A DNA stretch of 64,000 nucleotides from Gammaproteobacteria bacterium (GTDB lineage: Bacteria > Pseudomonadota > Gammaproteobacteria > JADZEE01): positions 96,152 to 160,151 of the forward strand of contig CBDDBH010000025.1 in assembly GCA_965225625.1 (NCBI GenBank), given 5' to 3'. Made by a program: the position numbers and the translations under genes. Below the pieces are notes generated by a model. That model was given only the letters and a program-made list of their open reading frames with translations. It did not search any database and was not told where the DNA came from. Shown here in pieces: positions 4,486-41,350 of the stretch. Each line of letters opens with the position of its first letter. Within the stretch, counting starts at the first letter, position 1.

Positions 4486-6388
4486 ATGCGCGCTCACAAA
4501 CCCGCAATTTTAATCCTCGCGGCGTTGTTACCGACCGCGCTTGTAACGATGGCGCACGCCTGGACAGCCTATGGCGGAGGCGCTGGCGGCGGTCAGTATT
4601 CGCCGCTCGCGCAGCTCACAGTCGACAACGTGCAACGACTCGCGCCCGCGTGGATCTATCACACGGGTGAACTCGCCGACGGCAGTAACGGCATCGCGCC
4701 GACGACCTTCGAAGTCAATCCGATTTTCGTCAACAACGCCCTATATTTCTGTACACCCTACGGTCGGGTCGTGGCGCTGCGACCGGATACTGGCCAGGAG
4801 TTGTGGAGCTTCGATCCCGGCATCGATCGCACGACAACCATTATCGGCGCACACATCTGTCGTGGTGTCAGCTATTGGGAAGATGCACGGGCCGAACCGG
4901 CTAGCGTTTGTCGCAAGCGGGTGTTTCACGGTGTCGCAGATGGCCGCTTGATCGCGTTGGACGCTGATACCGGGCGCCGGTGTGAGGACTTCGGCCAGGC
5001 TGGAGAAGTCCGCTTGGACGCATTCGACTATCACGGCCACGGGGATGTCGGCCTGACATCGCCGCCCGCCGTCGTCAGGGATCGCGTCGTCGTGGGCGCC
5101 AGTTTTCCAAGCTACGAAAAAACCGATTCCGTAGATGGGATTGTTCGCGCATTCGATGCCCGCACAGGAGGACAGGTTTGGTCCTGGAATCCGATCCCGC
5201 CGTCGTTGAGCAGCAGCATTGGCGGCGCCAACGTGTGGGCACCGATATCCGTCGACCGTGCGCGCGGATTGGTGTTTGTGCCGACCACCAGTCCCACACC
5301 GGACATTTACGGCGTAGCGCGCGAGGAACCCGTGCCATACGCGAACGCCGTAGTCGCACTCAACGCAGACAGCGGCACCGTGCAATGGCACTTCCAGACC
5401 GTGCATCACGATTTGTTCGACTACGATCTACCGGCGCAGCCGCTGCTAGTTGAACTTCAACGCGGGAATGCGACCGTGCCTGCCGTGGTGCAGGTGACCA
5501 AGACCGGTTTTGTGTTCGTGCTGCATCGTGAGACGGGCGAACCGGTGTTCGCCCGTCGAGGAACGCCCGGTGCCGCCATCTGATTTGCCGGGTGAAGTCG
5601 CCGCCGCGACCCAACCGTTTTCAACTGAACTGGCACCGTTTGCGAGACAGGACTTCACGGCCGACGAAGCATGGGGTTTGACGTTCTGGGATCGGGGCCG
5701 TTGCCGCGCGGCCGTCGAGGCGCTGCGCAATGAAGGACTGTTCACACCGGCGAGTCTGCGAGGGAGCATGTTGATACCGAGTTCCGCCGGCGGTGCGAAC
5801 TGGGGTGCCGCTGCTTTTGATCCGCAGCGGCAGATCCTGATTGTCAACAACACCAATCTGGCGTTCTCGTCGCGCCTTATTGAACGCGAGAAATTCGATC
5901 TGGAGCTGGCGCGGCAACGCTATGCCACCGTCGGCATGATGCCCGATACCCCCTACGTCTGGATGGAAGCGCCTATCATGTCGCCCTTCGGTGTGCCCTG
6001 TACGCCGCCCCCTTGGGGGGCCATCACCGCCTACGATATGACGGCAGGTGAGATCCTCTGGCAGATTCCTTTCGGGCGTATGCCGGTCGGCCCGTTTCGC
6101 ACACCGCGGGCCTGGGGCGCACCGCACATGGGCGGCGCCATCATTACCGCCGGCGGGCTGATCTTTATTGGCGCGAGCCTGGACAGCAGGCTGCGAGCCT
6201 ACTCTTTGGCTGACGGCGAACAGGTTTGGGAAGCAGAACTCCCGGCCCCCGGCGTCGCCACGCCAATGACTTACTCGGCCGGCGAACCGGCGCGGCAGTA
6301 CGTGGTTATTGCCGCAGGCGGCCACGCAAGACTCAGCTCGCAATTATCAGACGCACTCGTCGCTTTTGCCTTGCCGGCTGCTCACTAG
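4486..6388 (+). pseudogene. PQQ-dependent dehydrogenase (quinoprotein glucose/alcohol dehydrogenase family) with signal peptide; apparent +1 frameshift near 5550
   Basis: The N-terminus has a signal peptide and W-rich propeller repeats. Two frames overlap, 4486..5583 and 5510..6388. Joining them gives ...RETGEPVF|PVEERPVPPSDLPGE, which is typical of quinoprotein dehydrogenases. A single extra nucleotide in gttcgcccgtcgagg separates the frames. Confidence 0.65.
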
Positions 6389-8646: not shown

Positions 8647-9105
8647 ACCGACTCCCGTGAATGCGAATTACAACGGCAAACTAGCATATTGATACAGCTA
8701 TTGAACTCACCATCTCACTCCATGCTGTGACTTTGGTTATGTTCATGTTGTGTCCCCCTCCAACGCTACGTTATTCCAGCGACACGTCCAGGCGAACCAA
8801 TCATTTTGCGGTTCGGATTCAAGCACCCCGTCAACCATCTTTCATCCAGAACACCGTTTCGGTATTGACGCCAATCGGGTTCACGAAGCAGTCGGTGGTT
8901 CCACCCAGTATCCTGCACCTATTGGGACAAATCTATGCTGGTGGACGGAGCCGCAAGGAGCGGGCTGCTCGGCATTCTTCTATCTGGTCAATAGCAGAGT
9001 TTTATTAAAACCCGTTACCGCTTGAGACATACGCTTGCTCGACGAGCACGCCGGAATGTATGGCCGGTTCGTCGCCTGCGCTATATCAGTTTTAAAGTTA
9101 TTTTG

Positions 9106-10605
9106 ATGAACACGTCGCACCAAGTGCGAATGCCAACTACCAACTCGCAAGCACCGACTCGGCGTAGACACCTCAACCACGTATCGAAACACGATACAAT
9201 TCACAGGCCAGCATTCGGGGGGCATCGCTTGGCCGACTCCATCATCCAGCAGTTAGTCCACCGCAAGATGTTCCGCATCACGGCGGGGTATCTGGCGGTG
9301 GCGTGGGTGCTGTGGCAGGTGGTAGACACTACGTGCCCGACCTTTGAGTGTTCGCTGTCATTTCAGAAGTCCATATTCTGGTTTCTTGTAGCCGGATTGC
9401 CGGTCACGCTTACAGTTGCTTGGGTGCACTGGAAGACGGCCATCCTTGTCGGTGTGGGAATACTTGCCGGGATAACGGTCACTCTTCTGGTGACTCGAGC
9501 TACATCGCCTGCCCCAGAGTCTAAAACTACCGCGATTACCCCGGTGACCGAAGTTACCCAGCCTGCCCCCACACCCACCGCAACAGTTGAGGAGAAGTCC
9601 ATCGCAGTGCTGCCGTTTGTGAATATGAGTGATGACCGGGAGCAGGAGTATTTCAGTGACGGTATATCGGAGGAAATACTAAACGGTCTCGCTAAGGTAG
9701 AGACGCTGCGTGTCGCTGCGCGGACCTCGTCGTTCTTTTTCAAAGGTAAGGACGCCGATCTGGAGACAATAGCTGAGAAACTGGGTGTCGCCCATGTCCT
9801 GGAAGGTAGTGTCAGAAAGGCGGGTGATCGACTTCGTATCACGGCGCAACTAATTAAGGTCGATGACGGCTTTCACTTATGGTCCGAGTCTTACGACCGT
9901 GAACTGACGGACATCTTTGCTGTTCAGGATGAGATTGCCAATGCAGTTGTCGATGCGTTGAAGATAGAACTGGGTGTTACAGCGGGCAGTACATTGGTAG
10001 ATATCGGCACGACCAACCGCGAAGCCTACGATTGGTATTTGCGCGGCAAGGATGCATTGGTTACCGGTAGCTTAGAGGGATTCCAACGCGGCGTTGGATA
10101 CTTCAATCGCGCGATTGAGCTGGATCCCGACTATGTTGATGCTTACGCCTATCTCGCGTTCGCGCACATATTGCAACATCCGTTTACGCTCTACCAAAAA
10201 CCCTACCGAGAATTAGCACCGGACATCAAACACGCCTACTCGCGGGCCTTGGCATTGGAGCCCGCACACAGTGCGGCGCTGTGCGCTAAGGGATATGACA
10301 AGATGTTTTTAGAGTGGGACTGGTCCGAGGCGGGGAAGCTATTCCGAGCAGGGACTGGCGAGGGTAAGGTTAATGACGTTTGCCTGGGAACCTATGTCGC
10401 GTGGTATCTTCTAGCGCTCGGTCAGTACGAGGAGGCAATCGCATTACTTCGCAGCGCCGAGCGGAGCGATCCCCTGAATCTCGAGCTTAAACATCAGCTC
10501 GGCGCTTATCTTGGACAATTTGCCGGCGAGTGGGAAGAAGGGAGCAACCACCTCCGTGCAGTAATCGACGCCGTGCCCGACCACGTATTCGCGCTCACCG
10601 ATTTA
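9106..10605 (+). pseudogene. TolB-N-like/TPR-repeat membrane protein, 5' portion, interrupted by an IS630-family insertion
   Basis: It has a TM helix MFRITAGYLAVAWVLWQVV and a TolB-N-type motif IAVLPFVNMSDDREQEYFSDGISEEILNGL followed by TPR-like helices. The reading frame runs into the IS at 10606. The ORF-track start at 9022 is probably too early. Confidence 0.65.
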
Positions 10606-11706
10606 CTCAGCAGTCGCCAATATAGGCGACAGATGGAGCAAGAAAGAATGATCGAACAAGGTGGGGCATACGCTTGAGTTGGGTGAGTTGCTCCTCGATC
10701 TTCTCGCGCAGTGTTTCGCCCGCCCGCAGCGTCCGTCGCGCCGCACCCGTGCGCTTGACGTGACTCCACACCCATTCATCGGGGTTCAGGTCTGGCGCGT
10801 AACCGGGCAGAAAATGCAGGCTCAGCCGGCCATTCGTCGAAGCGACGTAGTCGCGCACGCACGCGGTCTTGTGCGCCGGCAGACTGTCGAGCACGAGATG
10901 CACCGGTTTGCGCCGGCCCCGCATGAGCTGGCGCAGCAAGGTGACAAACAAATCGGCTTTGAGCGCGCCGCTATAGGTGCAAAACCAGAACGCCCCGTTG
11001 GCGTTGACCGCCGAGGCGGCACTGAACGATTGACGCTGTCCGGGTCGGTACACGACCGGCGTCTGGCCGCGCACGCCCCAGGTCTTACCGTGCACCGTAT
11101 CAGCACGGAAGCCAGACTCATCCCAGAAAAACACCTCGCCACCGTGCTGTTTCGCTTGACGGGCGATGGCTGGGAAGGTTTCACGCTGCCAGCGTTCAAT
11201 CGCCTCGGGGTCCCGCTGATAGGCTCGCTGCAGCGGCTTGTGCGGCGTCAATCCCAGTTTCGCCAACAACTCCCCGACCGCCGTGACGCCTATCGTCACC
11301 CCGAACTTCTGCGTCACCAACTCCACGACCACCGCGCGCGTCCACAAGCCGAAGTCCAATCCATACTGTCGCGGGTCACGACCATTGATCCAGCGGAACA
11401 CCTGTCGCTCTTGCGCCGCGCTCAGGGTTCGTGGCCGCCCCGTAGCCTTCGTCGAACGCAACGCCTTGATGCCGACACCCGGCTGCAGCGCCGCTTTGAT
11501 CCATTTGTAGATGGTCGTCCGGTTGAACCCGAACGATGCGATCACCGTCGCCGGCGACTCGCCTTCGCGAACGCGCTCTATCGCCATCAAGCGAATAGCT
11601 TCCAAGGTCGAATGGTCAAGCGTGCGGCCGTCCAGTTTCATATCTGATCCGATCGGTACGCTCTCAGAAAGTTCCATCGATGTCGCCTTATTTATCGACT
11701 AGTGAG
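10606..11706 (-). mobile_element. IS630-family insertion sequence, copy 1 (1101 bp, imperfect ~27-bp terminal inverted repeats, TA target-site duplication)
   Basis: The left end reads ctcagcagtcgccaatataggcgaca. The right end, reverse-complemented, reads ctcactagtcgataaataaggcgaca. TA dinucleotides flank it at 10604..10605 and 11707..11708. It is about 99% identical to copy 2. Confidence 0.8.
10607..11677 (-). CDS. IS630-family DDE transposase
   Basis: The 356-aa protein has an N-terminal HTH, a DDE core and the IS630/Tc1-type motif YAPDLNPDEWVW. Confidence 0.85.
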   Translation of the reverse strand: MELSESVPIGSDMKLDGRTLDHSTLEAIRLMAIERVREGESPATVIASFGFNRTTIYKWIKAALQPGVGIKALRSTKATGRPRTLSAAQERQVFRWINGRDPRQYGLDFGLWTRAVVVELVTQKFGVTIGVTAVGELLAKLGLTPHKPLQRAYQRDPEAIERWQRETFPAIARQAKQHGGEVFFWDESGFRADTVHGKTWGVRGQTPVVYRPGQRQSFSAASAVNANGAFWFCTYSGALKADLFVTLLRQLMRGRRKPVHLVLDSLPAHKTACVRDYVASTNGRLSLHFLPGYAPDLNPDEWVWSHVKRTGAARRTLRAGETLREKIEEQLTQLKRMPHLVRSFFLAPSVAYIGDC

Positions 11707-11708
11707 TA

Positions 11709-12170
11709 ATTGCTATACATCTCAATTCGGGTCAACTGGAAAAAGCGGAATCGCTGCTCCGTTCGGAAAGTTTAAAAGGGCCGAACACCTATCCGTATGC
11801 CATGTGGTTGCGGGTTGTGCTTGACGTTCTCCGCGGTGATAGCGCTAAGGCGCAATCTGTCTATGATGAGGCGCGGCGCATTGGCGAGAGCAGCGTCAAC
11901 AAATCACCGGACCTGTGGCATGGCCTGGGGTTCGCAGCGGCGTCATTGGGTCATCTAGACGAAGCGATAAGCTGGTTCAACCGCGGTTTCGAGGAGGAGG
12001 CTTTGGCTAGCGTCGTGGTGCGCCCGTTCGTAACGTCGTGGTCAGCGTTTAAGCAAGGCCACGGCCCTGCCCTCATGGCCCACCCCGACTTCCAAGCGTT
12101 CCTTGCGAAAATGAATCTAGACGATGCGTCAATAGCGGCGTTGGAGGCGGCTGCAGCAGCAGGGGATTAA
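11709..12170 (+). pseudogene. TolB-N/TPR protein, 3' portion downstream of the IS630 insertion
   Basis: The frame opens immediately at the IS boundary. Removing the IS and one TA copy restores a continuous in-frame ORF ...ALTDL|IAIHLNSGQLEKAESLLRS...MWLRVVLDVL..., which continues with TPR-like sequence. Confidence 0.65.
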
Positions 12171-12811: not shown

Positions 12812-15028
12812 ATGCTCAGGCTATTCTCAAATAAGCAGCGTCCGACCCATCTGGGCCCCTACCCGCTTGAACGCTTGCCGCGCGCTGAAGAAATTCCGTC
12901 GTATACACCGGCGAGCGCGCCCGAGCCTCTTGAGATAGTGGATAGTGCGAACCTTTATAGTGTTGCCAACGCGTTGCCACGATCTTTCGATTTATATCGC
13001 AGGCTGCGCGATGGCAAAGTTCGCGCAGACGAGGCCGTCATTCCCACGGATCCTTCGGCCCGTTCGCAGCACCTGAAAAGCTTTTGCTATTTCCTCGATG
13101 CAAGTCAGGTTGGGGTTTGCGCTATCGCTGAGCGAGCGCGACTGGCAAGCCCAATAAAGATCGAATTTGGTAGTGCGGGCGACGGAAATACGGATGCCAC
13201 AGCACAAATTCGACACGACGCGCTTACCAAGCACGAAAACGAATACGGCGAACAATTAGGCGATCCGAGTAAACACAAGTTCGCGCTAGCCATTCTGATC
13301 GAGCATTCCCAAGATCCCGCGCCTGGCGCTCCGGGTTCTGAGTTTATTCGAGGCAGCCATGCAGCACGCTCCGCAGTTCGCGCAGCCGAGCTCGCGGTCA
13401 CGATTGCGATGTACCTGCGTCGGCTCGGTTGGCCAGCACGCGCCCACCTTGCGACGGCAAGCGAGCTGGATCACGACTACATTCTGCTGGCCGCCGGGTT
13501 GGGCGAAGTCACTTCCAGCAAAGGAATTGACCGCGTAACCAATCCTTACCTCGGCGATCGCTTCGGCGTCGCCATTGTTTCGACCACGCTGGAATTAGGC
13601 GTCGATCAGCCTTTGGCTCGACGGGGCCTGGCGGCCAACCTTCTGGCTCGCGGACCGCGATACTGGCTCGGCGTCGGCGGCACGCGTCCCGGCTGGAAGT
13701 GGATCACGGGAGAATCCCGCCCACTCCACAAGGGCGTCTATCCGATGGAGGGGATAAAACACGTTGAAAAAGCTACTACCTATATTGACGTCGAGGCCAT
13801 ACAACGCGTGCCCAAACGCGCAGACTTTTTCAGTCGGGGTGCGTTCGGCGATCTTGGGCCAGCTGCAGAACGCGAGAGCGTTGGCGGCCACTTCATGGAG
13901 AAGGAGCCCATCGGCGCGACTATGGGTGTGGTGGTAACGGAAGGCGTACCGTTGCAGTTCGGCGAGCCGGCGGCAACTAAAGCGCCGCATTCCGATGACC
14001 CGGATCGCAATATGCACAGTATCCGTGCGCTTTGCCATTTCTTGGGAGCGGACATTGTCGGCTTTACCCCGGCCTATGCGCATACCTGGTATTCGCATCA
14101 CTTCGACGGCACCCCGATCGAGCCTTATCACAAAAATGCGATCGTCCTCGTGCTCGACCAGGACCAGGAAACCATGTCCGGCTCAAGCGGCGACGACTGG
14201 ATTAGCAACGCCCAGAGCTTTCGCGCATACATGCGAGGCGCCTTTCTCTCCAACATTGTGGCCGAACATATCCGCGGCCTCGGCTGGTCGGCGCGATCGC
14301 ACACCGCCTGGGACGAGGACGTGCTGCACATTCCTTTGTGTGTACACGCCGGTATCGGCGAGTTGAGTCGCATTGGCGAGACGGTACTCAACCCATTTTT
14401 AGGGCCTCGTTTCAAAGACGCCATCGTGACCACTGACTTGCCGCTGACGCCCACCAAATATGTTGATTTCGGTTTGCAGGATTTCTGCGGCAAATGCCAG
14501 AAATGTGCCCGTGAGTGCCCCTGCGACGCGATCCCCTACGGCGACAAAATTCTTTTCAATGGCTACGAAATCTGGAAACCGGACGTGCAACGCTGCGCGA
14601 CTTATCGGATCACCAACTCAGCGGGTGCCGTGTGTGGCCGCTGCATGGCCACCTGCCCGTTTCAGACAGAAAGCACCGTGTTTAACCGTGGCCTCTTATG
14701 GGCTTCGATCTATCTGCCGTTCCTTCGTAGCTCGCTGGCAAAGTTTGATGACTGGCGCCGCAACGGTGAGATCAATCCCGTAAAGAAGTGGTGGTGGGAT
14801 CTGGAGGACACCGGCCATGGTCTCGGACCGGCCAAGCGGGTCAACGCAAGGCCGCTGTTCTTCAAACCGCGAATAGAAGGTAAGAAACGAAAACAAAACG
14901 CCGTATTTCCGCCACACATGAACCCGCCTCCAGCTGCAACCGAAGCGGTGCCGGTCGATCGCGCCGCCGGTATTGCCGCGCAACTACAGTGCGCAGCCGA
15001 TCTGCAACGCTTGAAGGAAAAACAATAA
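12812..15028 (+). CDS. Reductive dehalogenase homolog (RdhA superfamily; cytoplasmic, catabolic-type two-domain architecture)
   Basis: The C-terminus has twin ferredoxin motifs, FCGKCQKCARECPCDAIP and CGRCMATCPF. The RDH/QueG-like motif occurs twice: AAGLGEVTSSKGIDRVTNPYLGDRFGVAIVSTTLELG in a degenerate N-terminal domain and AGIGELSRIGETVLNPFLGPRFKDAIVTTDLPL in the C-terminal domain. The ATG at 12812 is preceded by AGGAG. Confidence 0.7.
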   Translation: MLRLFSNKQRPTHLGPYPLERLPRAEEIPSYTPASAPEPLEIVDSANLYSVANALPRSFDLYRRLRDGKVRADEAVIPTDPSARSQHLKSFCYFLDASQVGVCAIAERARLASPIKIEFGSAGDGNTDATAQIRHDALTKHENEYGEQLGDPSKHKFALAILIEHSQDPAPGAPGSEFIRGSHAARSAVRAAELAVTIAMYLRRLGWPARAHLATASELDHDYILLAAGLGEVTSSKGIDRVTNPYLGDRFGVAIVSTTLELGVDQPLARRGLAANLLARGPRYWLGVGGTRPGWKWITGESRPLHKGVYPMEGIKHVEKATTYIDVEAIQRVPKRADFFSRGAFGDLGPAAERESVGGHFMEKEPIGATMGVVVTEGVPLQFGEPAATKAPHSDDPDRNMHSIRALCHFLGADIVGFTPAYAHTWYSHHFDGTPIEPYHKNAIVLVLDQDQETMSGSSGDDWISNAQSFRAYMRGAFLSNIVAEHIRGLGWSARSHTAWDEDVLHIPLCVHAGIGELSRIGETVLNPFLGPRFKDAIVTTDLPLTPTKYVDFGLQDFCGKCQKCARECPCDAIPYGDKILFNGYEIWKPDVQRCATYRITNSAGAVCGRCMATCPFQTESTVFNRGLLWASIYLPFLRSSLAKFDDWRRNGEINPVKKWWWDLEDTGHGLGPAKRVNARPLFFKPRIEGKKRKQNAVFPPHMNPPPAATEAVPVDRAAGIAAQLQCAADLQRLKEKQ

Positions 15029-15096
15029 GGCGTTTAGTGGAGTCTTGGCTCCATAATTGAGCGGTGTATACGTCTTACGAATAAGGAGAGACTGGT

Positions 15097-16311
15097 ATGC
15101 CACGGTTGTTCATTCTCGTCGTGTGTTTGCTGCTGAGCGGCCACGTCTCCGCAGAGCATCCACAAGGTTCCGCCGATATCGTGCTTCGCAATGCACGGAT
15201 CATCAATGCGGCCGGGAACGTAATGCAGGGCGGTTCTCTTGTCATTAGCGGTGATCGGATCAGCGCCGTTGAGCCTGGGCTAACGCCGGTTCGCGCAGCT
15301 GTTGAGATAGACGCTACCGATTTGACGGTGATGCCGGGCCTGATCGATGCGCATCGCCATTTATTGATCAGACCCGATCTGGACAGCGACGCCGCATTAT
15401 CGCGATGGCAAGATGAGCACCTTCAGGCAATGCTCAACGAATACCTGGAAAGCGGTTTTACAACCGTCCTGTCGGCGGGCGACTATCACCCGGCAATTAT
15501 CCAGATAAAGCAGCGTCTAGCGGACGGGACTTTAACCGGGCCCCGGATTCTCGCCCTCAGCGTCGTGTTTACAGCGCCAGGCGGCCACCCGGTGCTTACT
15601 ATCTGTAAGAACAATCCGTGGTGCCAACAGCGCGTCGCGATCCAAGTCGCCGATCCTGACACGGCCCGCGCGACAGTCAGAGATTTTGCAAAAACCGATA
15701 TCGACGGCTTAAAGCTCATTTATGACGGCTATCTCGGTGTACGGCTCGACGACTCTGTTTTCGCGGCCATCGCCGACGAAGGACGGCGACATAGCGTGCC
15801 CGTGTTTGCGCACGCCTCAAGCGTGGAAGATATGATTCGAGTTGTCGATCTAGGGGCCAATCGGCTGGTTCATCCGCCGTATTTCGGTTCACTCGCCGGA
15901 ATCAAGGCTGGACGAACGCTGCGTGACGCAGCGGTGATGGTTACCACGACAGTCTCCCGACCGCTCGGCCTCACAGCGCCGGATCGTGTCCAAGCGCTGG
16001 CAAACCTGCGACAGCTCTGGGATGACGGTGTGACCATCGCTTTCGGTACCGACCTGCAAGTTGGGCCCGCCGCCGGCCTGGCGCGTGAGACTCAGCAACT
16101 CGCACAGGTACTCTCGCCAAGCGAGATCATCAGCGCATTGACTCGTAACGCCGCCCTGTTCCTGGGACTGGGTGCGGAGATCGGTACCCTTGAGGTCGGT
16201 AAGGTCGCCGACATATTGATCGTCACGGGTGATCCGCTAAATCGAATTGAAGATCTGGCGAACGTCGTAATGGTAATCCGCAACGGTGCCATTGTCGTCG
16301 ATCATCGCTGA
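15097..16311 (+). CDS. Amidohydrolase-family metal-dependent hydrolase, secreted
   Basis: It has a signal peptide and the PGLIDAHRH metal-binding motif, then GTD...H motifs. It starts 69 bp downstream of the RdhA-like gene. Confidence 0.75.
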   Translation: MPRLFILVVCLLLSGHVSAEHPQGSADIVLRNARIINAAGNVMQGGSLVISGDRISAVEPGLTPVRAAVEIDATDLTVMPGLIDAHRHLLIRPDLDSDAALSRWQDEHLQAMLNEYLESGFTTVLSAGDYHPAIIQIKQRLADGTLTGPRILALSVVFTAPGGHPVLTICKNNPWCQQRVAIQVADPDTARATVRDFAKTDIDGLKLIYDGYLGVRLDDSVFAAIADEGRRHSVPVFAHASSVEDMIRVVDLGANRLVHPPYFGSLAGIKAGRTLRDAAVMVTTTVSRPLGLTAPDRVQALANLRQLWDDGVTIAFGTDLQVGPAAGLARETQQLAQVLSPSEIISALTRNAALFLGLGAEIGTLEVGKVADILIVTGDPLNRIEDLANVVMVIRNGAIVVDHR

Positions 16312-16359
16312 AACATGCGATTGCTTGCCTAGCGTCGCGTTCAAGATTCCCAACGCCGA

Positions 16360-17092
16360 TCACCGCGCCGGTGGCGCCACTGTTAGCTGGCCTGTCACGC
16401 CGTGCTGTTCGATGAGGCTGGCAACCAATCCGCTTGCTTTTGCTTCCTCGACGAAGTCGTTTAAGAAGGCGGCACCGATCGCGTGATCCGGCTTCGTGCC
16501 GATGGCCTGTTGCACTGAGGAGTACTTACCTTCGAGTATGCGCGAACCGGGAAGGCGCTCCACGTCATTTATGAGGCGCGGCCGCAATCCCGCCAGCGCA
16601 TCAAGGCGTTGCTGCACGAATAGATCGAAGGACGCATCCATGCCGTCGGTCTCGACGAGATCCGCGTGTTTGATATTGTCCTTCAACCACAACCCGTAGG
16701 CGGCGCGGCCGTAAACTGCAATGCGCACACCTTCTCGGTCTACTTCCTCGATGGACTGGATAGACGAACCAGCGGGCAGCAGATAGGTAGATTCAATTTC
16801 CGCGTAGGCGGCGGTGAAGGTAATCACTTTCGCACGTTCGGGCTCCGCCCCAATGTTGGCGATGTCCCATATGTCCTCGGAGGCCGCGTCCGCCAGCTCA
16901 CCCGGTGTCTGGAAGTCTATGTACTGCACTGGCACGCCCAAGCGCGCCGCAACTACGCGGGCCATATCGGGAGACACGCCTTGCGGGCTCTCCCGCAGCG
17001 CTTCTGCCGGTAACAAGGAGAAAGTTGGAGAGGTTGATGCCGGCGCGAAGGACACCGGTGGGCGCCAACTCGGCACGTGCTTGTTCGATCAT
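16360..17092 (-). pseudogene. Substrate-binding protein of the periplasmic-binding-protein type (family 3/PhnD-like); frameshifted near 16960-16990
   Basis: The N-terminal segment GVLRAGINLSNFLLV lies in ORF 16898..17092. The remainder, SPDMARVVAARLGVPVQYIDF..., lies in ORF 16360..17076 in a different frame. Confidence 0.5.
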
Positions 17093-17222
17093 TGAGCTCA
17101 GCCCTTGTTTCAGTTACCTAACAACTTTATTCGTGAAGCTGCCTTATAAGCAAGACGGGCGCTCGTTTAGATGAATAGCATTCCGTATACTTAACTGTAG
17201 CAGCGGCCCATAGAGGGCAAAT

Positions 17223-18475
<1,253 letters not shown>

Positions 18476-18521
18476 GAAATTGCAGCATCTGTTTACGTTT
18501 ATAGTTGTCCAGGGCCCAGCT

Positions 18522-19239
18522 ATGCACAACGTGGAACTACCGCAGGACCTGATTGACTTCGTCATGTCCCGGCGCGGTCGTCTAAACGTTTTTGACGATA
18601 TTGATCCAGCGACTACGGCGATGCTGGTCATTGATATGCAAAACGCTTATGTTGAGCAGGGCGCTCCGCTGCATCTTCCCTGGGCGCCCGGCATTGTTCC
18701 TGAGGTGAATACATTGGCGGCGGCGCTGCGCGAGGCCGGCGGTCTGGTCGTGTGGCTGCAACACACGAACGGTGCTCCGGGCACGTCTGATTATTGGTCG
18801 ATGTATTTTGATAACTTTGTTGATCCGAACAAGCGCGAGGCACTGGGCACTGGGCAATGCGTTAACGCCGGGTAGTCATTATCACGGTCTGGCACCGCAA
18901 TTGGATGTACACCCAGATGATCTGGTATTGGATAAAAGGCGCTTCAGCGCACTGATCCCCGGTTCGTCAACGCTGGATGAAAATCTGCGCGGGCGCGATA
19001 TAAAGACGGTGATAGTGACCGGCACCTTGACCAATGTTTGCTGTGAGTCAACCGCGCGCGATGCCATGATGATGGATTACCGGGTATTTATGCCCATGGA
19101 CTGTACCGCCGCACGTAGTGATAACGATCATCTAGCCGGATTGCGAACAGTTTGTCAGGCAATCGGTGATGTACGCTCGAGCGCCGAGCTCATCGACATG
19201 ATAAAGCAGGGAACCGGAGCAGCAGGCGACGCGAGTTAA
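18522..19239 (+). pseudogene. Isochorismatase-family cysteine hydrolase, disrupted by a 7-bp tandem duplication (gcactgg gcactgg at 18840..18853)
   Basis: It contains MLVIDMQNAY and VIVTGTLTNVCCESTARDA. Removing one gcactgg copy fuses the two ORFs in frame as ...REALGNALTPGSHYHG.... Confidence 0.7.
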
Positions 19240-19254
19240 GGAGAGCCCACGGCA

Positions 19255-20019
19255 ATGGTCATAGGACATGAACTGCGGGGAAGCGGCGAAGAGCACGTCA
19301 TCATCATGCACGATTGGCAGGGCGACCATCGAAATTACGATGGGATCCTCGCTTACCTGGATACGGCCGCCTTTACCTATGCCTTTGCGGACTTACGCGG
19401 CTACGGTTGGTCCCGGGAGATCGGTGGCGAACATTCGGCGGCAGAAGCTGCCAATGATGTGATTGCTTTAGCCGATCACTTAGCTTGGGAGCGATTCCAT
19501 GTTGTCGGCCATTCCATGACCGGTATGGTTGTGCAACGCATTGCCATCGATGCCGGGAAACGGATCAAAAGCGTCGTAGCCTCGAACCCGGTCCCCGCCT
19601 GCGGAATAGCCATTCCTGCCGAAGCGCTCGCCTTTTTTGAATCCTCCATAACCGATGATGCCAAGTTCAAAACATTATTGATGGATATAGTCAGGCCGGA
19701 TCTGTCCGAAGCGTGGCAGAACTACAAGCTGCACATCTGTCGTGACAGTGCAGATTTCCAGACGCGCAGTGACTATCTACGTATGTTTACCTCGACCGAT
19801 TTTTCTGCCGAAGCGCAGGGAATACAAACACCGATATTGGTCCTGGGCGGAGAGTTTGACCACGAATCATTATCGCAGGCAAACCTGCAGGCTACATTCG
19901 GCAGCTGGTACCCCAATGCCACAATAAAGATTTGCGCCAATGCCGGTCACTACCTGATGGAAGAGATGCCGATTTATTTCGTGTCGGTTATCGAAGCGTT
20001 TATGCGTGGGGACGGATAG
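19255..20019 (+). CDS. Alpha/beta-fold hydrolase
   Basis: It has the nucleophile elbow HVVGHSMTG (GxSxG) and is 254 aa long. Confidence 0.7.
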   Translation: MVIGHELRGSGEEHVIIMHDWQGDHRNYDGILAYLDTAAFTYAFADLRGYGWSREIGGEHSAAEAANDVIALADHLAWERFHVVGHSMTGMVVQRIAIDAGKRIKSVVASNPVPACGIAIPAEALAFFESSITDDAKFKTLLMDIVRPDLSEAWQNYKLHICRDSADFQTRSDYLRMFTSTDFSAEAQGIQTPILVLGGEFDHESLSQANLQATFGSWYPNATIKICANAGHYLMEEMPIYFVSVIEAFMRGDG

Positions 20020-20118
20020 GGATTTGGAGTTTTGATTGAGAGCGGGTAAAGAGATACCCACCTGTCAGCACGCCGCAACCGCGGAGAAGTCGTCCCCCAC
20101 AACGTTCAGTTTTCAGCG

Positions 20119-21156
20119 CTAATTTCGCGCAGCTAGCATCTTGGCGGTTAGTTTCGGCGCAAGACCGGGGCGGCTCCAGGGGCAGATCGACAAGCAGATT
20201 GCGCAACCGTAGTTCTCATTGAAATACGGAACGCATTTATCAAAATCGACGTACCATTTCTCCACGCCACGTACTATCTGCTTTTCGTTTGAGATGGCTA
20301 CGGGTGGGCACGCATTAGTGCACGCTTTGCATCGGCTGCAATAATCATCGACGCCGATGTCTATGGGTTGGTCCTCAACCAGCGGCATGTCGGTTAATAC
20401 AAAAGAAAACCGCATACACGATCCCAGTTCATTGTGTATCAATGAACCGTGCTTACCCAGTTCGCCCAATCCCGCGGCATGGGCGGCCGCCAGCAGAATA
20501 ATCGGCGCGCCTTTGGGTCCGCCGTGGCCCACGGCGTCGTAACCCTGGGTCCTGATCCAGTCAGCCAATTTCCATGCCGCAATTTGCGAGCGAAGGTAGG
20601 TGCCCAATACTTCACGCACTTCCGGTAGGAATTTGTTTTTCCAGAAGGGCCGCCATCTGCCATCGTCCTTATCTAGATTTTTCGACAATTTTTTATAATC
20701 CATGGACCGGCCCAGTACGATGATCCAGGGATGTTTGACAAGGCCAAGCTGATTGTCGCGATCGAAAATCAGATCAGGCGTGACTTTTGTGATCCCGACT
20801 ATGTCGCACTGTGGATGTGCAACGGCTATTTCCTTAACCGTCCGAGACCAGTTCGTTGGAGTATCTTCAATTTTTTGGTGCGCAATCGGACGATGACCGA
20901 GTCGGTCCATCAACCAGCTGCGAAAGATGATGCGACCTTGCACCATGTCCCACATCTGTCTGCCGTAAAACGATTCCTGTACCCAGTACCAGGGATGTCG
21001 GTGACTGCGGCGATGATAAACAGGTGTGGCCGGGCGTTTTTCCGTTTCGCCCAGTCCGTTGATTTCGTTACCGGTGATGTCCGGTTTCAGATAGTTATGC
21101 AACCAAGAGGGTTGATAGCCATCCGCAGTCTGGTGTCCGTAAAGAAAACCCATCAA
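20119..21156 (-). CDS. Reductive-dehalogenase/QueG-superfamily protein (short RdhA-like, twin 4Fe-4S motifs at the C-terminus)
   Basis: GLGELGKHGSLIHNELGSCMRFSFVLTDMPL is an RDH/QueG-type motif. It is followed by CSRCKACTNACPPVAI and CAICLSICPW. Confidence 0.6.
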   Translation of the reverse strand: MMGFLYGHQTADGYQPSWLHNYLKPDITGNEINGLGETEKRPATPVYHRRSHRHPWYWVQESFYGRQMWDMVQGRIIFRSWLMDRLGHRPIAHQKIEDTPTNWSRTVKEIAVAHPQCDIVGITKVTPDLIFDRDNQLGLVKHPWIIVLGRSMDYKKLSKNLDKDDGRWRPFWKNKFLPEVREVLGTYLRSQIAAWKLADWIRTQGYDAVGHGGPKGAPIILLAAAHAAGLGELGKHGSLIHNELGSCMRFSFVLTDMPLVEDQPIDIGVDDYCSRCKACTNACPPVAISNEKQIVRGVEKWYVDFDKCVPYFNENYGCAICLSICPWSRPGLAPKLTAKMLAARN

Positions 21157-33698: not shown

Positions 33699-35024
33699 TC
33701 ACGCGGCAATACTGGTTAGCCCTTTCCAAAGCGGAGCGATCACGACACTCAATTTTGCATGCGCCTGGCTGAGCGCGGCCTCCACCTGCTCCGGGCGTGG
33801 CGCCCGAGCAAAGATGAAACCGAGGTAGCTGGAGCCCTCGGGCAGCGGCACCAGTTGATAATGATCCCGCACCTGTATGGTCACTTCCTCGACATAAGGT
33901 ACCTCGCGGGCCGCACCCACCCCCTCGACCCGTCTGAGGATCCCGGCCTTCGGCGTCGGGATCATCAACACGCCGGCCGCCTCTTGCCAACCTGCAAACA
34001 CCAGCGGGGCGCCCACGGCGTTCGATAACACCAGCCCCTCGAGGCTGCCGGCGAGACCGTATTCGAACAGCCGACTGCACAGCCCACCGATGGTCCGCGA
34101 CGCGATCTCGAGCATCCATACCCCAGCCGCATTGATGCGGCACTCAGCATGTATCGGCCCGTGCCGGAGCCCATAAGCGCGGCAGGTCTCGGCCACCCGC
34201 TGTCGAACCTGGCGCTGCACGCCCGCGTCGAGCCGTGACGGGGTCACGAAGTAGGTCTCTTCAAAATAGGGGCCATTTAGGGGAGCGGGTTTATCAAAGA
34301 CCGCGAGCACGTCGAGTTCCCCGTCGGTCAGCATCGCCTCGACCGCAACCTCGACGCCCGGAATAAATTCTTCCACGAGGAGGTAGTGCCGCTCTTCCGG
34401 GTCGTGGGCTTCGGCAACGATACGGGCCACACGTGCGCAAGCCGCGCGCAGCTCGTCCTCGCTATCCGCCCGGATGACGCCGCGGCTTGCCGACATGGCC
34501 AGGGGCTTGACCACGCACGGGAATTCGATGCCGTCGAGCTGCCCCGCGAGCGGCTTCTCCAGACTAATGCGCGCATGCGAGGGGACCGGGATCCCGGCGG
34601 CACTAAGGTGTGCCCGCGCGAGGTCTTTGCGGCGTGCAATGCGCACGGCATCCGGTTCGTTATGTGGCAAGCCCAATCGGCGTGCGGCGAGTGACGCCAG
34701 CTCGGTCGTGATATCGTCGGTGCCGATAATTGCGGCAAACGATTGGCGACGCGCTTCCTCGACGATGACGTCAACGGCACCGCGGCTGTCGCTGAAGTCG
34801 AGGTGCAATCCTTGCGCGTACGCACTGACCAGCGAATGGTGGCCTTCGGACGCGATCAGGCACTCGATGCCGAGGTGCCGAGCCGCTTCAACGTAAGGGA
34901 CGGTCCGGTAGCTCCCGTGCGGAGCGATGATCAATACGCGTGCTTTGCCCTGTGCCGACGTACGCTGCAGGTCTTCACCGCCGGCAACACGGGTTCGGTT
35001 TCCAGCATCGATCGTTGGAGACAT
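33699..35024 (-). CDS. ATP-grasp domain protein (carboxylate-amine ligase-like)
   Basis: 441 aa with ATP-grasp-type motifs (VVKP..., EEFIPGVE.., ...E.N). Confidence 0.6.
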   Translation of the reverse strand: MSPTIDAGNRTRVAGGEDLQRTSAQGKARVLIIAPHGSYRTVPYVEAARHLGIECLIASEGHHSLVSAYAQGLHLDFSDSRGAVDVIVEEARRQSFAAIIGTDDITTELASLAARRLGLPHNEPDAVRIARRKDLARAHLSAAGIPVPSHARISLEKPLAGQLDGIEFPCVVKPLAMSASRGVIRADSEDELRAACARVARIVAEAHDPEERHYLLVEEFIPGVEVAVEAMLTDGELDVLAVFDKPAPLNGPYFEETYFVTPSRLDAGVQRQVRQRVAETCRAYGLRHGPIHAECRINAAGVWMLEIASRTIGGLCSRLFEYGLAGSLEGLVLSNAVGAPLVFAGWQEAAGVLMIPTPKAGILRRVEGVGAAREVPYVEEVTIQVRDHYQLVPLPEGSSYLGFIFARAPRPEQVEAALSQAHAKLSVVIAPLWKGLTSIAA

Positions 35025-35066
35025 CTAAGCCGTCAACCTTTGCCAGAAGTGGACAGGATGCGGCGT

Positions 35067-35465
35067 CTAGTAGCCGCTGCCGCCACAGCCGCCGCACATG
35101 CCGCTGCCGCCCACACTCTCAAACACATCGTTAAAGACAAAGACCTCATTAAGGCCCTGCTTGGCGTAATCGATTTGGCAGCCCCGCAGGAAGTTGAGGG
35201 CGACGGCATCCACCACCAGTTTGAAGCCCTCACCCTGGAGGACACTGTCGTACTCGGTACGCTCCTCAACATAGGTCATCCCATAGCTGAGGCCATCGCA
35301 TCCGCCACCCTCAACAAAGACACGCAGGGCGGTGAATTCCTTCTCGGCGTCCCGCATGATTTTCGCGAGCTGCGCCTCGCCCGCAGGTGTAATCGTCAAG
35401 TATTGCTCGGTGATGTCCTGCGGATATTCGGATCTCGACTCTTGCGACATTAGCTTGAACCCCAC
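35067..35465 (-). CDS. HesB/IscA/ErpA-family iron-sulfur cluster insertion protein
   Basis: FVEGGGCDGLSYGMTY plus a C-terminal Cys-Gly cluster GSGMCGGCGGSG. Confidence 0.75.
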   Translation of the reverse strand: MGFKLMSQESRSEYPQDITEQYLTITPAGEAQLAKIMRDAEKEFTALRVFVEGGGCDGLSYGMTYVEERTEYDSVLQGEGFKLVVDAVALNFLRGCQIDYAKQGLNEVFVFNDVFESVGGSGMCGGCGGSGY

Positions 35466-35570
35466 TCAATCAACGGTGATAATTCGACAGGATGATACCT
35501 GAGTCTTTATTATAGCTCCTTCGACTTCAACGGCGCATAGGCACCTCACCTACCTCGAAGCTCACTGGCC

Positions 35571-35855
35571 ATGGCACGTACCGTAGATTGCCCGATCCTG
35601 AAGCGCGCAGCCGAGGGACTGGAAGAACCGCCGTACCCCGGCACCTTGGGCAGGCGCATCTATGAGCATATTTCCAAGGAAGGATGGCGGCAGTGGCTGG
35701 AACGGCTCACCATGATCATGAATGAGAATGGGTTGAGCACGGCAGATCCGGACGCAATGCGCCTTATTGAAGAACATATGCGGGGTTTCTTGTTCGGAGA
35801 AGGCGACCTCGGCGGTCTACCGGCGGGGTTCGTCCCCCAGGGCCAGAAGAAGTAA
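35571..35855 (+). CDS. yggX: Fe(II)-trafficking / oxidative-damage protection protein YggX
   Basis: MARTVDCPILKRAAEGLEEPPYPGTLGRRIYEHISKEGWRQW...MIMNENGL aligns with E. coli YggX ([42 protein letters not shown]). Confidence 0.85.
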   Translation: MARTVDCPILKRAAEGLEEPPYPGTLGRRIYEHISKEGWRQWLERLTMIMNENGLSTADPDAMRLIEEHMRGFLFGEGDLGGLPAGFVPQGQKK

Positions 35856-35926
35856 CCAGCACTGCAGCACGATTTCCGCTGTTCCGCCGTCGACATCTCC
35901 ACTCTGGGGCGATAGCGCGTTCGCGA

Positions 35927-37315
35927 TTATAGTTCCGCGAACTGCTCGTCCGTCGGCTCGGCGCAGCAATACCACGGCTCACTCAGCTCCGCCGACGGCG
36001 CGCAGTCCGCCATCGACACGGGCGGCGCCGGCCGATCCAGGTATGCATGCGCAAGTGTCCAGACCTCCCTGAATAACTGTTCGCGCGGCTTGCCTGCGGC
36101 TTGCTGGACGATTCGCTGGATCTCGGCCTGCATTTCGTCCACCTTGGGGTCGGCACTCGACCACCGATATACGAGCGCCGCCTGGTCGAGCGGGCCGACG
36201 TGATCGCAGATCTCCTGCAATTCCAGCAGCCGCGAGCCGGGCGGGATCAAAAGGCGTATGGCAAGCTGCACGGGCGCGACGGCGCCCACCAGTTCGAGTT
36301 CGGTCAACGCCACCAGCAGATCTCGGTAGCCGGCCAGTGTCGTCCACGGCGTAAACGCGACAAACGTCGGCGACAGCTTCAGCCCCAGCTCATCGAAATT
36401 GCGGACCACGTGGTAGAAATCCTCGCGCGTGTGGCCTTTGTCCAGGAGGGTAAGGATCCGATCATCAACCGACTCGACGGCGGTGGTGACGAAAAGACAC
36501 CCTGTGCGTTTTAATATCGGCAGCAGCCTGGCGTGCGCGAGTAGGTGCTCGACCTTGATGGTCACGTCATAGGTCAGCTCCGGAAATTGTTCGTGCAGCG
36601 CCTCGACGATCCGCACGCCATGGGTTGGCCCATTGAAGAAGTCGGGGTCACCGAAGGTAATATGGCGTGCGCCCGCTAGCACTTGTTGGCGCAGGTCAGC
36701 CAGCACGATCGCGCGCGGCACGGCACGAAACCGCCCGTTATACACTGGGACTACCGGACAGTGGCGGCAGCGGTGCTTGCAGCCCCGACTTGCCTCGACG
36801 TAGCCGGTAACGCGAGCCTCGCCGTCGGGCATTCGCAGAAACGCATAACGGTCGAGCGCTGGGAGGTCGCTGCGATCCGGTACCAGAAACCGCTGCCCGA
36901 CTACGGAGATCCGCGGTTCCGGTTGCTCGCCGGTCTCACAAGACACCCCGGATTCGAGCCGATCGGCGAGTGCCTTGAGTCCCGACTCGAATTCACCGCC
37001 CAGTACCGTTCCGACACCGAGTTCGCGAAGGTACGCTTCATTCATCGGCGCATAAAGACCATAGGCGGCGATATGCGTTCGGGGGTTGAGGAGCTTTACA
37101 CGGGGGATCAGCCGGGCGGCCAGCCGGGTCGCCGTATGCATCGGTACATAGAAAGCCGCTAAGTCGGCTTTGCCAACAACGTCTTCGTCCCAGCTCTCGA
37201 CAGCCAGATCCAAGGTCCGTACTGAATCGCCGCGCTCCCGCAACCAAGCCACAGGCTCCGCCAGACCAAAGGGTTGGTGGCCGAGTTCATAGGTGGAAAT
37301 GAGGACGACGTTCAT
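35927..37315 (-). CDS. B12-binding-type radical SAM protein with a C-terminal CCAEP tail (Cys form of the CUAEP/CCAEP-tail radical SAM family)
   Basis: It has CKHRCRHC (CxxxCxxC) and an N-terminal B12-binding-like domain. The extreme C-terminus reads ...SEPWYCCAEPTDEQFAEL. Confidence 0.65.
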   Translation of the reverse strand: MNVVLISTYELGHQPFGLAEPVAWLRERGDSVRTLDLAVESWDEDVVGKADLAAFYVPMHTATRLAARLIPRVKLLNPRTHIAAYGLYAPMNEAYLRELGVGTVLGGEFESGLKALADRLESGVSCETGEQPEPRISVVGQRFLVPDRSDLPALDRYAFLRMPDGEARVTGYVEASRGCKHRCRHCPVVPVYNGRFRAVPRAIVLADLRQQVLAGARHITFGDPDFFNGPTHGVRIVEALHEQFPELTYDVTIKVEHLLAHARLLPILKRTGCLFVTTAVESVDDRILTLLDKGHTREDFYHVVRNFDELGLKLSPTFVAFTPWTTLAGYRDLLVALTELELVGAVAPVQLAIRLLIPPGSRLLELQEICDHVGPLDQAALVYRWSSADPKVDEMQAEIQRIVQQAAGKPREQLFREVWTLAHAYLDRPAPPVSMADCAPSAELSEPWYCCAEPTDEQFAEL

Positions 37316-37685
37316 CCCAACTCAACCTGTCAAATATGGAGCGGCGAATTTTTTTCCGTGGCGGTGCGCACAGATGTCATCATTGGCAAAGCACTCGTCA
37401 CCAAGCTTAAGCACGGCTATGGTCTTGCCGCCCACCTCGACGCATTTGGCCCAACGTCGAAATCGGAAACTTTAGCTACAGAGACAAAATTTGACATGGT
37501 CACTCCAATGCCGAATGCCCACGGGCAACCGATCTCAAGATTTGCACCGATCACAAGCGCTCGGGCTTTGGTTACAAGCATAGATTCTGCAAATCCGAAT
37601 GACAACCGGCGTGATCTCTGACGCTGTCCAGAGGCCGGGATCGTTGAAGGGCGCAAAAACTCTATCTGTGTTGTGTTCATCCACC

Positions 37686-38140
37686 GAGTCGTGTGAAAAA
37701 CTGCTGCTAGAACAATAACAAGCAGGAGTAGACCGTGTTGCAATGGTTTGTCGCCGCGTGTTCAGCGTGTTTTCAATCGAGGACACAACTTATTGCCGAG
37801 AATCTGTGCCTTCGACAGCAGTTGGTTGTTCTCAAACGTCGCCAAAAGCGACCGTTGCTGAACGATTCGGATCGGCGCTTTTGGATCCTAGCGAGTCGAT
37901 GGTTGGTGCGTTGGCGCGCTACGTTAATCGTTGTGCAACCAGAGACAGTATTGAGTTGGCATCGCAAAGGTTGGAAAGCGTTTTGGCGCTGGCGTTCGAG
38001 GCGGGTTGGGGGAGGCTGTGTGTGGCGAATTGCTATTTTGCGCTAGCCAGCCTTTTCCATGGAAGGGTTTTGCAACCGGTTGCATCAAAAACGACTCCTC
38101 ACACTCCTCAAATCTAGAGTTCCCTGCTTTTCCCCTGTTA
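37686..38140 (+). mobile_element. Internally deleted derivative of an rve-type (IS481-like) IS: left end with ~100 codons of transposase fused to the right-end region
   Basis: The left end, cgagtcgtgtgaaaaactgctgc...ttgcaatggtttgtcgccgcgtgttcagcgtgtttt, is shared with 43815... The ORF MLQWFVAACSACF...LRQQLVVLKRRQ is homologous to the N-terminus of the 42650 transposase. The right-end block (38011..38140), with the palindrome ttgcaaccggttgca, also occurs at 45708... Confidence 0.55.
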
Positions 38141-38405
38141 ATTCCCCGTTATTTTTAGCACTGACTTCAGGGAACATCCCTAAGATTCAGGACTTTAGTG
38201 CGCTTGTAACTCGCAATTCGAGCGCAAAAACCTACAGAGAATCTTACATTCGTTTCCGACACCTGCGAAATTCTCCCAATCCCATTTTGGCAGTACGTTT
38301 TGGCCGATAGTTTCGTGTGTTACGCGGCAACGTGCGAACGCGCCGGAGCTATCTACGTTTCAACTTATTGCTGTGCAACACCTAGTAAAGTGACCGTACT
38401 GCAAT

Positions 38406-39440
38406 CTATTGAAATGGCAGGGCGGCGTGCAGCCCGCCATCGTTCCAAATGCCATTAAGCCCTCTATCAAGCCCGATTGGCGTGAAGTGCCGCTCCCACA
38501 CATCGGCGTAGTTACCCACGAGTTTGATGATGTTGTACGCCCAGTCATTGTTTAATCCCAATGCGGCGCCGAAGTCTCCGTGCACGCCCAGTAGACGCTG
38601 CACCTCGGCGCTTTTCGAGCTTGCGCGCATCTCGTGCACATTCGCCTGACTGATACCGAGTTCTTCGGCAGCAATTTGCACGTTGAAGGACCATAGGGCT
38701 ATATCGCGCCAGCGCGGATCGTCTTGTCGTATCATCGGGCCAAGCGGCTCCCTCGTTATCACCTCGGACAAGATCGCATGCAGGTCACGGTCCGGCCAGT
38801 TATGTATGCGACCGGCAATTGACATTTGACCCGTGCTGAACGCATCACAGCGATCTGCCCGATAGGCTTGCAGTCCTTTGTCTTCGTCGGCAAAAGTAAT
38901 GGCGACATAACGCAGGCCGTGGTAGTTAAAATAGTCGGCAATGTTGCGCTCATTGGTCGTACCCTGGCCCACGCATATCGTTGCGCCATCAAGATCTACC
39001 ACCGACTCGACGCCTGCGCTTTTCTTAACCACGAAACTCTGACCGACGTACAAATACACGCCGGCAAAATCCAACCCCAGCGTGGCGTCGCGCGAGAACG
39101 ACCACGTCGCGCTGCCGGGATAGATATCGATGCCGCCGGACTGTAGTAATGTGAACACTGTGTGCGGGGTGATCGGTATGTATTCGATGCGGATGTTGCC
39201 AAAGAGCGCCGCCGAAATCGTCTTGCAGTGGTCGATGTCAAAGCCGATACGCTCGCCGCGCCCATTAACCGTGCTGAATCCCGGGGCACCCTCCTGAACG
39301 CCGCAACGCAGATACCCACGGTCAAGAATGCCCTGCAGCGTGTCGGCTGCCTGGCAGGCGGCGGCTACCTGTACCCACACGATGACCACCGCCGGCAAGA
39401 GCCGCTGCGCGCGGTGGCTAAGTTTCAACAGTTGGACGGT
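38406..39440 (-). CDS. Amino-acid ABC transporter substrate-binding protein (family 3)
   Basis: It has a signal peptide and periplasmic-binding motifs typical of general L-amino-acid binding proteins (AapJ-like). Confidence 0.65.
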   Translation of the reverse strand, partial: TVQLLKLSHRAQRLLPAVVIVWVQVAAACQAADTLQGILDRGYLRCGVQEGAPGFSTVNGRGERIGFDIDHCKTISAALFGNIRIEYIPITPHTVFTLLQSGGIDIYPGSATWSFSRDATLGLDFAGVYLYVGQSFVVKKSAGVESVVDLDGATICVGQGTTNERNIADYFNYHGLRYVAITFADEDKGLQAYRADRCDAFSTGQMSIAGRIHNWPDRDLHAILSEVITREPLGPMIRQDDPRWRDIALWSFNVQIAAEELGISQANVHEMRASSKSAEVQRLLGVHGDFGAALGLNNDWAYNIIKLVGNYADVWERHFTPIGLDRGLNGIWNDGGLHAALPFQ

Positions 39441-41338: not shown

Positions 41339-41350
41339 AAATTGGCGACT

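Follow-up and report, generated by a model that had tools for sequence, protein, structure and literature searches.

Two putative cytoplasmic members of the reductive dehalogenase superfamily, one NpRdhA-type and one minimal, in an insertion-sequence-rich gammaproteobacterial genome

A 'vestigial duplication' is the defining trait of catabolic reductive dehalogenases (RDHs; catalytic protein RdhA), and a 'truncated' subfamily of these enzymes, devoid of the C-terminal reductase, has been described (PMC10463259). In NpRdhA, whose gene is clustered with ferredoxin and ferredoxin-reductase genes (PMC10463259), Y426 acts as proton donor with K488 as its partner, and S422 and R552 bind the phenol hydroxyl (PMC7565698). 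Short RdhAs lacking a twin-arginine translocation (TAT) signal, some of them from Asgard archaea, are already known in the literature. A 'simplified cytosolic' TAT-less type averages 395 amino acids (aa) (PMC12219181), and the short TAT-less proteins Ros_A3X954 and A0A2T7UTL8 are debrominases/deiodinases of Roseobacter and Pararhodobacter, the Roseobacter debrominase Ros_A3X954 being active on 2,6-dibromophenol (PMC13101508). Here we compare with these systems three open reading frames (ORFs) of a 64,000-nucleotide (nt) stretch of the gammaproteobacterial contig CBDDBH010000025.1, hereafter the window. An earlier sequence-only reading had named all three, and each was found where it had been placed: P1 (12812..15028, + strand), an amidohydrolase gene (15097..16311, +) and P3 (20119..21156, - strand). 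We regard it as rather probable that the window, which comes from a metagenomic genome rich in insertion sequences (IS), carries two independent cytoplasmic cobalamin/[4Fe-4S] members of the RDH superfamily, P1 being of the NpRdhA type and P3 a one-domain RdhA-like protein, and that neither forms a unit with the amidohydrolase. No further RDH-like or superfamily gene was found in the window.

P1 and the NpRdhA-type dehalogenases

The P1 ORF starts at an ATG preceded, 7 nt upstream, by an AGGAG ribosome-binding site and comprises 739 codons including the stop; the protein thus has 738 aa, one fewer than in the sequence-only reading, which had counted the stop codon but given the right coordinates. 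P1 scores 205 bits on the NCBIfam RDH model TIGR02486 (cut-off 160). A phmmer search of all PDB sequences returned NpRdhA (4RAS/6ZXU) as best match with E=1e-172 and residues 2 to 725 aligned (E=2e-172 with 4RAS alone), and the two proteins are 45% identical across the 564 aligned positions of the main block. P1 therefore aligns over its full length with NpRdhA, a well-studied marine debrominase of known crystal structure, and has the same layout of a vestigial and a functional core, with the same two cluster motifs.

In the N-terminal half, a vestigial second copy of the cobalamin-binding core (aa 155-262; 13274..13597, +) was recognized as an internal repeat: residues 155-262 match residues 439-545 with 36% identity (E=7e-19). 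In this copy, Ala stands in place of the catalytic Tyr and Gly in place of the catalytic Lys. It contains no Cys motifs, and C92 and C103 are the sole cysteines of the N-terminal half. The catalytic core (aa 381-660; 13952..14791, +) was delimited by residue mapping onto NpRdhA and contains Ser469, Tyr473, Lys535 and Arg599; the codons of the last three were verified at 14228-14230, 14414-14416 and 14606-14608 (+), respectively. Two [4Fe-4S] motifs of the forms CX2CX2CX3CP and CX12CX2CX3CP, CGKCQKCARECP (C559-C569) and CATYRITNSAGAVCGRCMATCP (C595-C615), lie in the C-terminal half (14486..14659, +).

Sequence inspection revealed neither a twin-arginine motif nor a hydrophobic or membrane helix in P1 or P3. 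Neither gene has an adjacent gene for a small membrane protein (rdhB), so that both depart from respiratory RdhAB systems on all three features, and no RdhB for P1 is encoded among its neighbouring genes. A fused reductase is likewise missing from P1, which has no PF00111 or PF00175 domain and no C-terminal module of the phthalate dioxygenase reductase (PDOR) type. The self-sufficient catabolic RdhAs BhbA and JtRdhA, which share the catabolic clade and the core with P1, differ from it in carrying such a module, and fused relatives of about 1075-1100 aa occur among the P1 matches at 42-49% identity. As P1 lacks the PDOR-type reductase, we place it in the naturally 'truncated' subfamily, like NpRdhA, with which it also shares the lack of a TAT signal, of an RdhB partner and of a fused reductase. 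Judged by its sequence, P1 is an NpRdhA-type cytoplasmic, non-respiratory 'truncated catabolic' RdhA. This agrees with the sequence-only reading, which had described a degenerate N-terminal RDH-like domain without Fe-S motifs, a C-terminal domain with two 4Fe-4S motifs and a cytoplasmic, non-respiratory type of dehalogenase; the internal repeat with its lost Tyr and Lys, the two located motifs, the full-length NpRdhA match with intact catalytic and phenol-binding residues and the missing TAT signal each bear on it. In contrast to NpRdhA, P1 has no ferredoxin or ferredoxin-reductase genes nearby.

The residues S422, Y426, K488 and R552 of NpRdhA are kept in P1 as S469, Y473, K535 and R599, and F290 and F310 are conserved as well. 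The pocket and its entrance nevertheless differ, K307, P311, A419 and M423 of NpRdhA being replaced by Ser356, Met362, Asn466 and Phe470. In a core alignment, the Asn466 and Phe470 changes are common to the closest relatives of P1 (at least 72% identity) but not to more distant ones. Since the entrance lysine is changed, as are three of the five hydrophobic residues of the pocket, the substrate of P1 is presumably not exactly that of NpRdhA. We infer from the conserved residues that P1 would dehalogenate ortho-halogenated phenols with a substitution preference unlike that of NpRdhA, an ortho-brominated or ortho-iodinated phenol being the most likely substrate. The vestigial N-terminal core would stand in for the second subunit of a dimer, while the C-terminal core would bind cobalamin and two [4Fe-4S] clusters. 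The phenolic hydroxyl of the substrate may be held by Ser469, Lys535 and Arg599, its ortho halogen may ligate the cobalt, a ferredoxin/reductase encoded by separate genes would feed in electrons via the clusters, and Tyr473 would protonate the substrate carbon. As an NpRdhA-type enzyme, P1 is ordinary for marine Proteobacteria, though its pocket is distinct; the altered positions (Asn466, Phe470, Met362, Ser356) could help comparisons of substrate scope within this otherwise unsurprising member of the type.

P3 and its family

P3 is a minimal single-domain RdhA-like protein of 345 aa if read from a TTG and 344 aa if read from the ATG one codon later (at 21153). The ATG, which has a GGAG site upstream and is the start in database entry P0001 (344 aa), is the more likely one. 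Two [4Fe-4S] motifs (CX2CX2CX3CP and CXnCX2CX3CP), CSRCKACTNACP and CVPYFNENYGCAICLSICP, are located at residues 273-284 and 308-326 (20179..20340, -). They end 19 residues short of the C-terminus, as expected from the sequence-only reading, which had seen an RDH/QueG-superfamily protein with its Fe-S motifs at the extreme C-terminus, unlike QueG.

A search of 5.8 billion proteins yielded 4754 P3 matches, the best 120 of which were characterized. Almost all of these 120 are 320-375 aa long, with coverage mostly of 94-100% and identity down to 43%, and the names they carry in their sources are no more than '4Fe-4S dicluster protein' or vary between QueG and dehalogenase. In an alignment of 43 homologues, the residues Tyr187, Lys235 and Arg249 are invariant, as are seven of the eight cluster cysteines, the eighth, C318, being nearly so. 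The N-terminal segment of the family is strikingly conserved in the same alignment (MGxLxG..GYxPSxLH..LKP..SGNxINGLGE..R..P.YHR). An AlphaFold2 model built from this alignment reached a predicted local distance difference test (pLDDT) score of 94.5 and a predicted template modelling (pTM) score of 0.93, and P3 displays the RdhA core fold.

To which side of the superfamily P3 belongs was assessed with profiles. With the P3-family profile built from the 43 homologues, three dehalogenases reach 163, 136 and 130 bits and two QueG structures 48 and 41 bits, and the RDH model outscores the QueG model in all 43 members. The profile alignment pairs Tyr187 (codon 20596..20598, -) with Y426 of NpRdhA and Y246 of PceA, and Arg249 (codon 20410..20412, -) with K488 and R305. 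QueG (epoxyqueuosine reductase; PDB 5D6S, 5D08) is, like P3, a member of the class-III cobalamin/2x[4Fe-4S] superfamily, and its cluster motifs resemble those of P3. On the QueG model TIGR00276, P3 obtains 59 bits and only residues 216-329 align. This weak hidden Markov model match, together with the name QueG on some database members of the P3 family, is what speaks for P3 being the epoxyqueuosine reductase of this organism, but we consider that identity extremely improbable: the QueG cut-off of 200 bits is far above the score of P3, the family is sporadic with multiple copies per genome, and P3 ends so soon after its second cluster motif that no room is left for a QueG-like C-terminal domain. 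QueG has such a domain beyond its cluster motifs. The scores thus support a position of P3, so far as its sequence tells, on the RDH side of the RDH/QueG superfamily rather than with housekeeping QueG. The sequence-only reading would have been contradicted by a clustering of both proteins within QueG; instead P1 is of the NpRdhA type and P3 falls on the RDH side by scores.

We then placed the P3 family among the short dehalogenases. A published motif, CDICTKCADACP, allowed 28 distinct Ros_A3X954-like proteins (about 390 aa) to be recovered from marine metagenomes; they are 29-35% identical to P3. A neighbour-joining tree (200 bootstraps, 176 core columns) combined them with the P3 family, with other short RDH-like proteins and transmembrane RdhAs from an exhaustive HMMER search, with proteins of the NpRdhA type and with PDB fragments that represent NpRdhA and two PceAs. 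Members of the P3 family form a monophyletic group (98% bootstrap) that joins other uncharacterized proteins of about 320 aa (96%), whereas the NpRdhA type (100%) and the Ros-like proteins with PceA (88%) form separate groups; no characterized member was found within the P3 group of the tree. The phylogenetic placement suggested by the sequence-only reading has thus set the P3 family apart from both groups, in a tree that has no QueG outgroup. Like P3, Ros_A3X954 and A0A2T7UTL8 are short, cytoplasmic, single-core RdhAs from aerobic marine bacteria, but they measure about 390 aa, match PF13486, which P3 does not, span 54 residues from motif 1 to the final CxxCxxxCP versus 45 in P3, and group with PceA away from the P3 family. 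From PceA, the respiratory tetrachloroethene dehalogenase (PDB 4UQU, 8Q4H), P3 differs in lacking a TAT signal and RdhB and in being about 100 residues shorter; identity in structural alignments is just 22-23%, and the source lineages of P3 are for the most part aerobic heterotrophs.

Based on these comparisons, P3 would be a one-domain RdhA-like enzyme of about 340 aa with a PceA-type Tyr187/Arg249 pair. It is predicted to bind cobalamin and two clusters, probably as a homodimer, and would perform the same kind of reductive chemistry on a small-molecule substrate. We know of no discrete B12 sequence motif for the base-off cobalamin class to which such binding would belong.

Several observations weigh against this assignment of P3, and some against a cobalamin-dependent role for either protein. 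P3 reaches only 111 bits on TIGR02486, below the cut-off of 160, and gives no PF13486 match at E<=0.01; Pfam recognizes ferredoxin-type motifs only, and PF13486 is absent from the precomputed domains of all of the top 120 homologues. The tree is a neighbour-joining reconstruction from 176 columns, lacks a QueG outgroup and includes the PDB sequences only in part. Phe312 stands in P3 at the position of NpRdhA R552, and a phenolic substrate is therefore not implied for P3. No characterization of activity or cofactor was found in the literature for any member of the family. Finally, the window contains no ferredoxin or ferredoxin-reductase gene as redox partner, no cobalamin riboswitch and no cobalamin uptake or salvage gene, its TonB receptor scoring 51 bits on BtuB against a cut-off of 600.

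Because P3 falls below the curated RDH cut-off and lacks a PF13486 match, it could catalyse a different reduction. P3 might then have a dehalogenase fold but carry out another B12-dependent reduction, perhaps of a natural, non-halogenated metabolite by analogy with the epoxide reduction of QueG, and 'dehalogenase' would be a misnomer. The lack of a characterized relative in the literature fits this possibility, as does the conservation of the first 55 or so residues: G29, N30, N33, G34, G36 and H48 are invariant across phyla whose proteins are just 43-50% identical, which hints at one common substrate rather than at the diversified pockets of respiratory dehalogenases. We nonetheless judge it unlikely, as the proton-donor Tyr/Arg pair of PceA is invariant in the family, and as the sporadic occurrence of the family, its tandem copies (up to five paralogues in one Kordiimonas contig) and its variable neighbours, catabolic in type, make up a pattern typical of substrate-diversifying catabolic enzymes.

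The P3 family was detected in at least 588 of 185,579 species-representative genomes, from Gamma- and Alphaproteobacteria, Acidimicrobiia, Gemmatimonadota, Myxococcota, Binatia and Entotheonella, and falls into about 30 full-length clusters at 50% identity. Several isolate names of the metagenome-assembled genomes (MAGs) concerned presumably denote sponge-derived bins. Some genomes carry multiple copies, and clustering of the neighbouring ORFs at 81 loci disclosed no conserved partner gene; three further contexts also differ. Such a sporadic, multi-copy distribution in varied neighbourhoods speaks for a catabolic enzyme acting on its own rather than for a housekeeping function. The densest array among the loci viewed is that of the Kordiimonas sp. 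MAG PADB01000006.1 (L013 2938..9029), where five paralogues in tandem on one strand are followed by a TonB-dependent receptor gene. Elsewhere (L005 5711..11154; ENA ERZ21829562 ctg256595l), a 51%-identical homologue is divergent to genes for a B12-dependent methylmalonyl-CoA mutase, MeaB and propionyl-CoA carboxylase, and its 3' end is overlapped by 14 nt by a gene for a 719-aa protein without Pfam match.

Within the superfamily, the P3 family apparently makes up an unrecognized and uncharacterized clade of the dehalogenase branch, and P3 is the more interesting of the two genes. Tentatively, and with rather less than even confidence, we propose that the family is a widespread clade of minimal soluble reductases (about 340 aa) that depend on cobalamin and occur in aerobic bacteria from marine, soil and host-associated habitats. 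The clade would be missed by surveys relying on PF13486 or TIGR02486, and its members might either dehalogenate natural organohalides in oxic settings or perform a new B12-dependent reduction. Its appeal lies in the retention of the catalytic Tyr/Arg pair in compact proteins that are common in aerobic Proteobacteria, Acidimicrobiia and Gemmatimonadota and that escape standard domain models; if active, they would extend B12-dependent dehalogenation further into oxic environments than is now known. As a small scaffold, P3 should also express easily for mechanistic work.

Linkage of P1, the amidohydrolase and P3

The amidohydrolase gene (PF01979 at 1.9e-26; 404 aa) starts 68 nt past the P1 stop and has its own AAGGAG site. 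Its adjacency had been noted by the sequence-only reading, with a gap of 69 bp and a signal peptide; the gap is one nt shorter, and with a Kyte-Doolittle value of 1.78 the N-terminus (MPRLFILVVCLLLSGHVSA|EH) is hydrophobic, resembling a signal peptide. The closest solved structures are the Xaa-Pro dipeptidase 2qs8, the Arg carboxypeptidase Cc2672 (3mtw) and the amidohydrolase 8ihq, and the protein belongs to the Xaa-Pro dipeptidase/arginine carboxypeptidase group.

P1 and the hydrolase gene share a strand, and the short gap that separates them contains no terminator-like site; this would fit a single pathway for a halogenated phenolic amide, in which the hydrolase frees a halophenol acid and P1 debrominates it, possibly with P3 taking part. 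The solved relatives of the hydrolase, which include amide/peptide carboxypeptidase-type enzymes and 8ihq, which we take to be an ochratoxin-degrading enzyme, also agree with it. We find such a pathway quite improbable, however. The N-terminus of the hydrolase is signal-like whereas P1 is cytoplasmic, and IS630 and IS110 elements flank and disrupt the region. Five contigs with P1 homologues were fetched, representing four distinct loci since two contigs carry the same 72% homologue. No such hydrolase is present at any of these four loci (76%, 72%, 59% and 52% identity), while three of them have a major facilitator superfamily (MFS) transporter gene adjoining the P1 homologue. The two intact transporters that were compared are 33% identical to each other, and no homologue is encoded in the window; P1 thereby differs from its closest relatives, which adjoin such a transporter. 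A tblastn search with the amidohydrolase retrieved only a contig of the same species and one unrelated 28% match.

The association of P1 with P3 fares no better. In a genome collection, none of 80 P3 homologues has an NpRdhA-type gene within +/-8 kb, and in a second genome of the same metagenome that carries both families the P1- and P3-type genes are about 44 kb apart. The pairing of P1 and P3 within 8 kb is circumstantial, and the links from P1 to the amidohydrolase and to P3 implied by the sequence-only reading both find no support in the homologous loci. Probably, then, the three genes are not one functional unit, and the amidohydrolase is a neighbour.

Insertion sequences and other genes of the window

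Upstream of P1, an IS630-family transposase gene (10607..11677, -; DDE_3/HTH_33) interrupts a tetratricopeptide repeat (TPR) gene, TPR fragments being found on either side. This insertion splits the TPR/FlgO-like gene into 9022..10677 and 11802..12170. A second IS630-family copy is present at 50846..51916 (-), both copies encoding 356 aa. An IS110-family transposase gene (21545..22609, +) lies by the promoter side of P3, and IS91 fragments are found beyond P3. Overall the IS load is high, with further elements at 23451..24658 (+) and 42650..43672 (+) and with fragmented IS91-like ORFs and an rve-type integrase among them.

A contig of the same organism, 99.8-99.95% identical to the window, differs in having an extra IS630 and in keeping whole two genes that carry frameshifts in the window. 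A cyclic nucleotide (cNMP)-binding/EAL phosphodiesterase gene and an isochorismatase-family gene are each split in two ORFs (17223..18475, + and 18399..19239, +), the EAL gene at a run of Pro codons (about 17960..18010); contig L001, which is 99.8% identical, has both genes intact (405 aa and 236 aa). The window's sequence is shared here by L002, an independent contig from short reads, and the frameshift is therefore probably a real variant rather than an assembly error. A pyrroloquinoline quinone (PQQ)-dependent dehydrogenase gene (4486..6388, +) is split into two overlapping ORFs covering profile positions 1-336 and 336-595, likely by a frameshift or as a pseudogene.

Further genes point to a possible neighbourhood for small-molecule biosynthesis or modification (33699..41554, - and 49562..50731, -). 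Its members include an ATP-grasp L-amino-acid ligase (33699..35024), a radical SAM protein, an SBP_bac_3 protein (38406..39482) and two PhyH-family dioxygenases (39418..40329 and 40442..41554). The radical SAM protein (35927..37315, -) falls in the CUAEP/CCAEP-tail family (NF040546, 610 bits versus a cut-off of 500) and is related to the arsinothricin enzyme ArsL; its C-terminus, ...EPWYCCAEPTDEQFAEL, is the Cys form and not the selenocysteine form. The gene at 49562..50731 (-) codes for a GntH-like hydrolase of the metallo-beta-lactamase (MBL) fold (NF041257, 436 bits versus a cut-off of 333), a family of guanitoxin pathway enzymes. Lastly, a gene for a 1987-aa multi-PAS/GAF hybrid histidine kinase and one for a response-regulator/SpoIIE phosphatase lie upstream of the gene (60620..63199, +) for an 859-aa protein with kinase-like APH, TCAD9 'ternary complex associated' and NUDIX domains.

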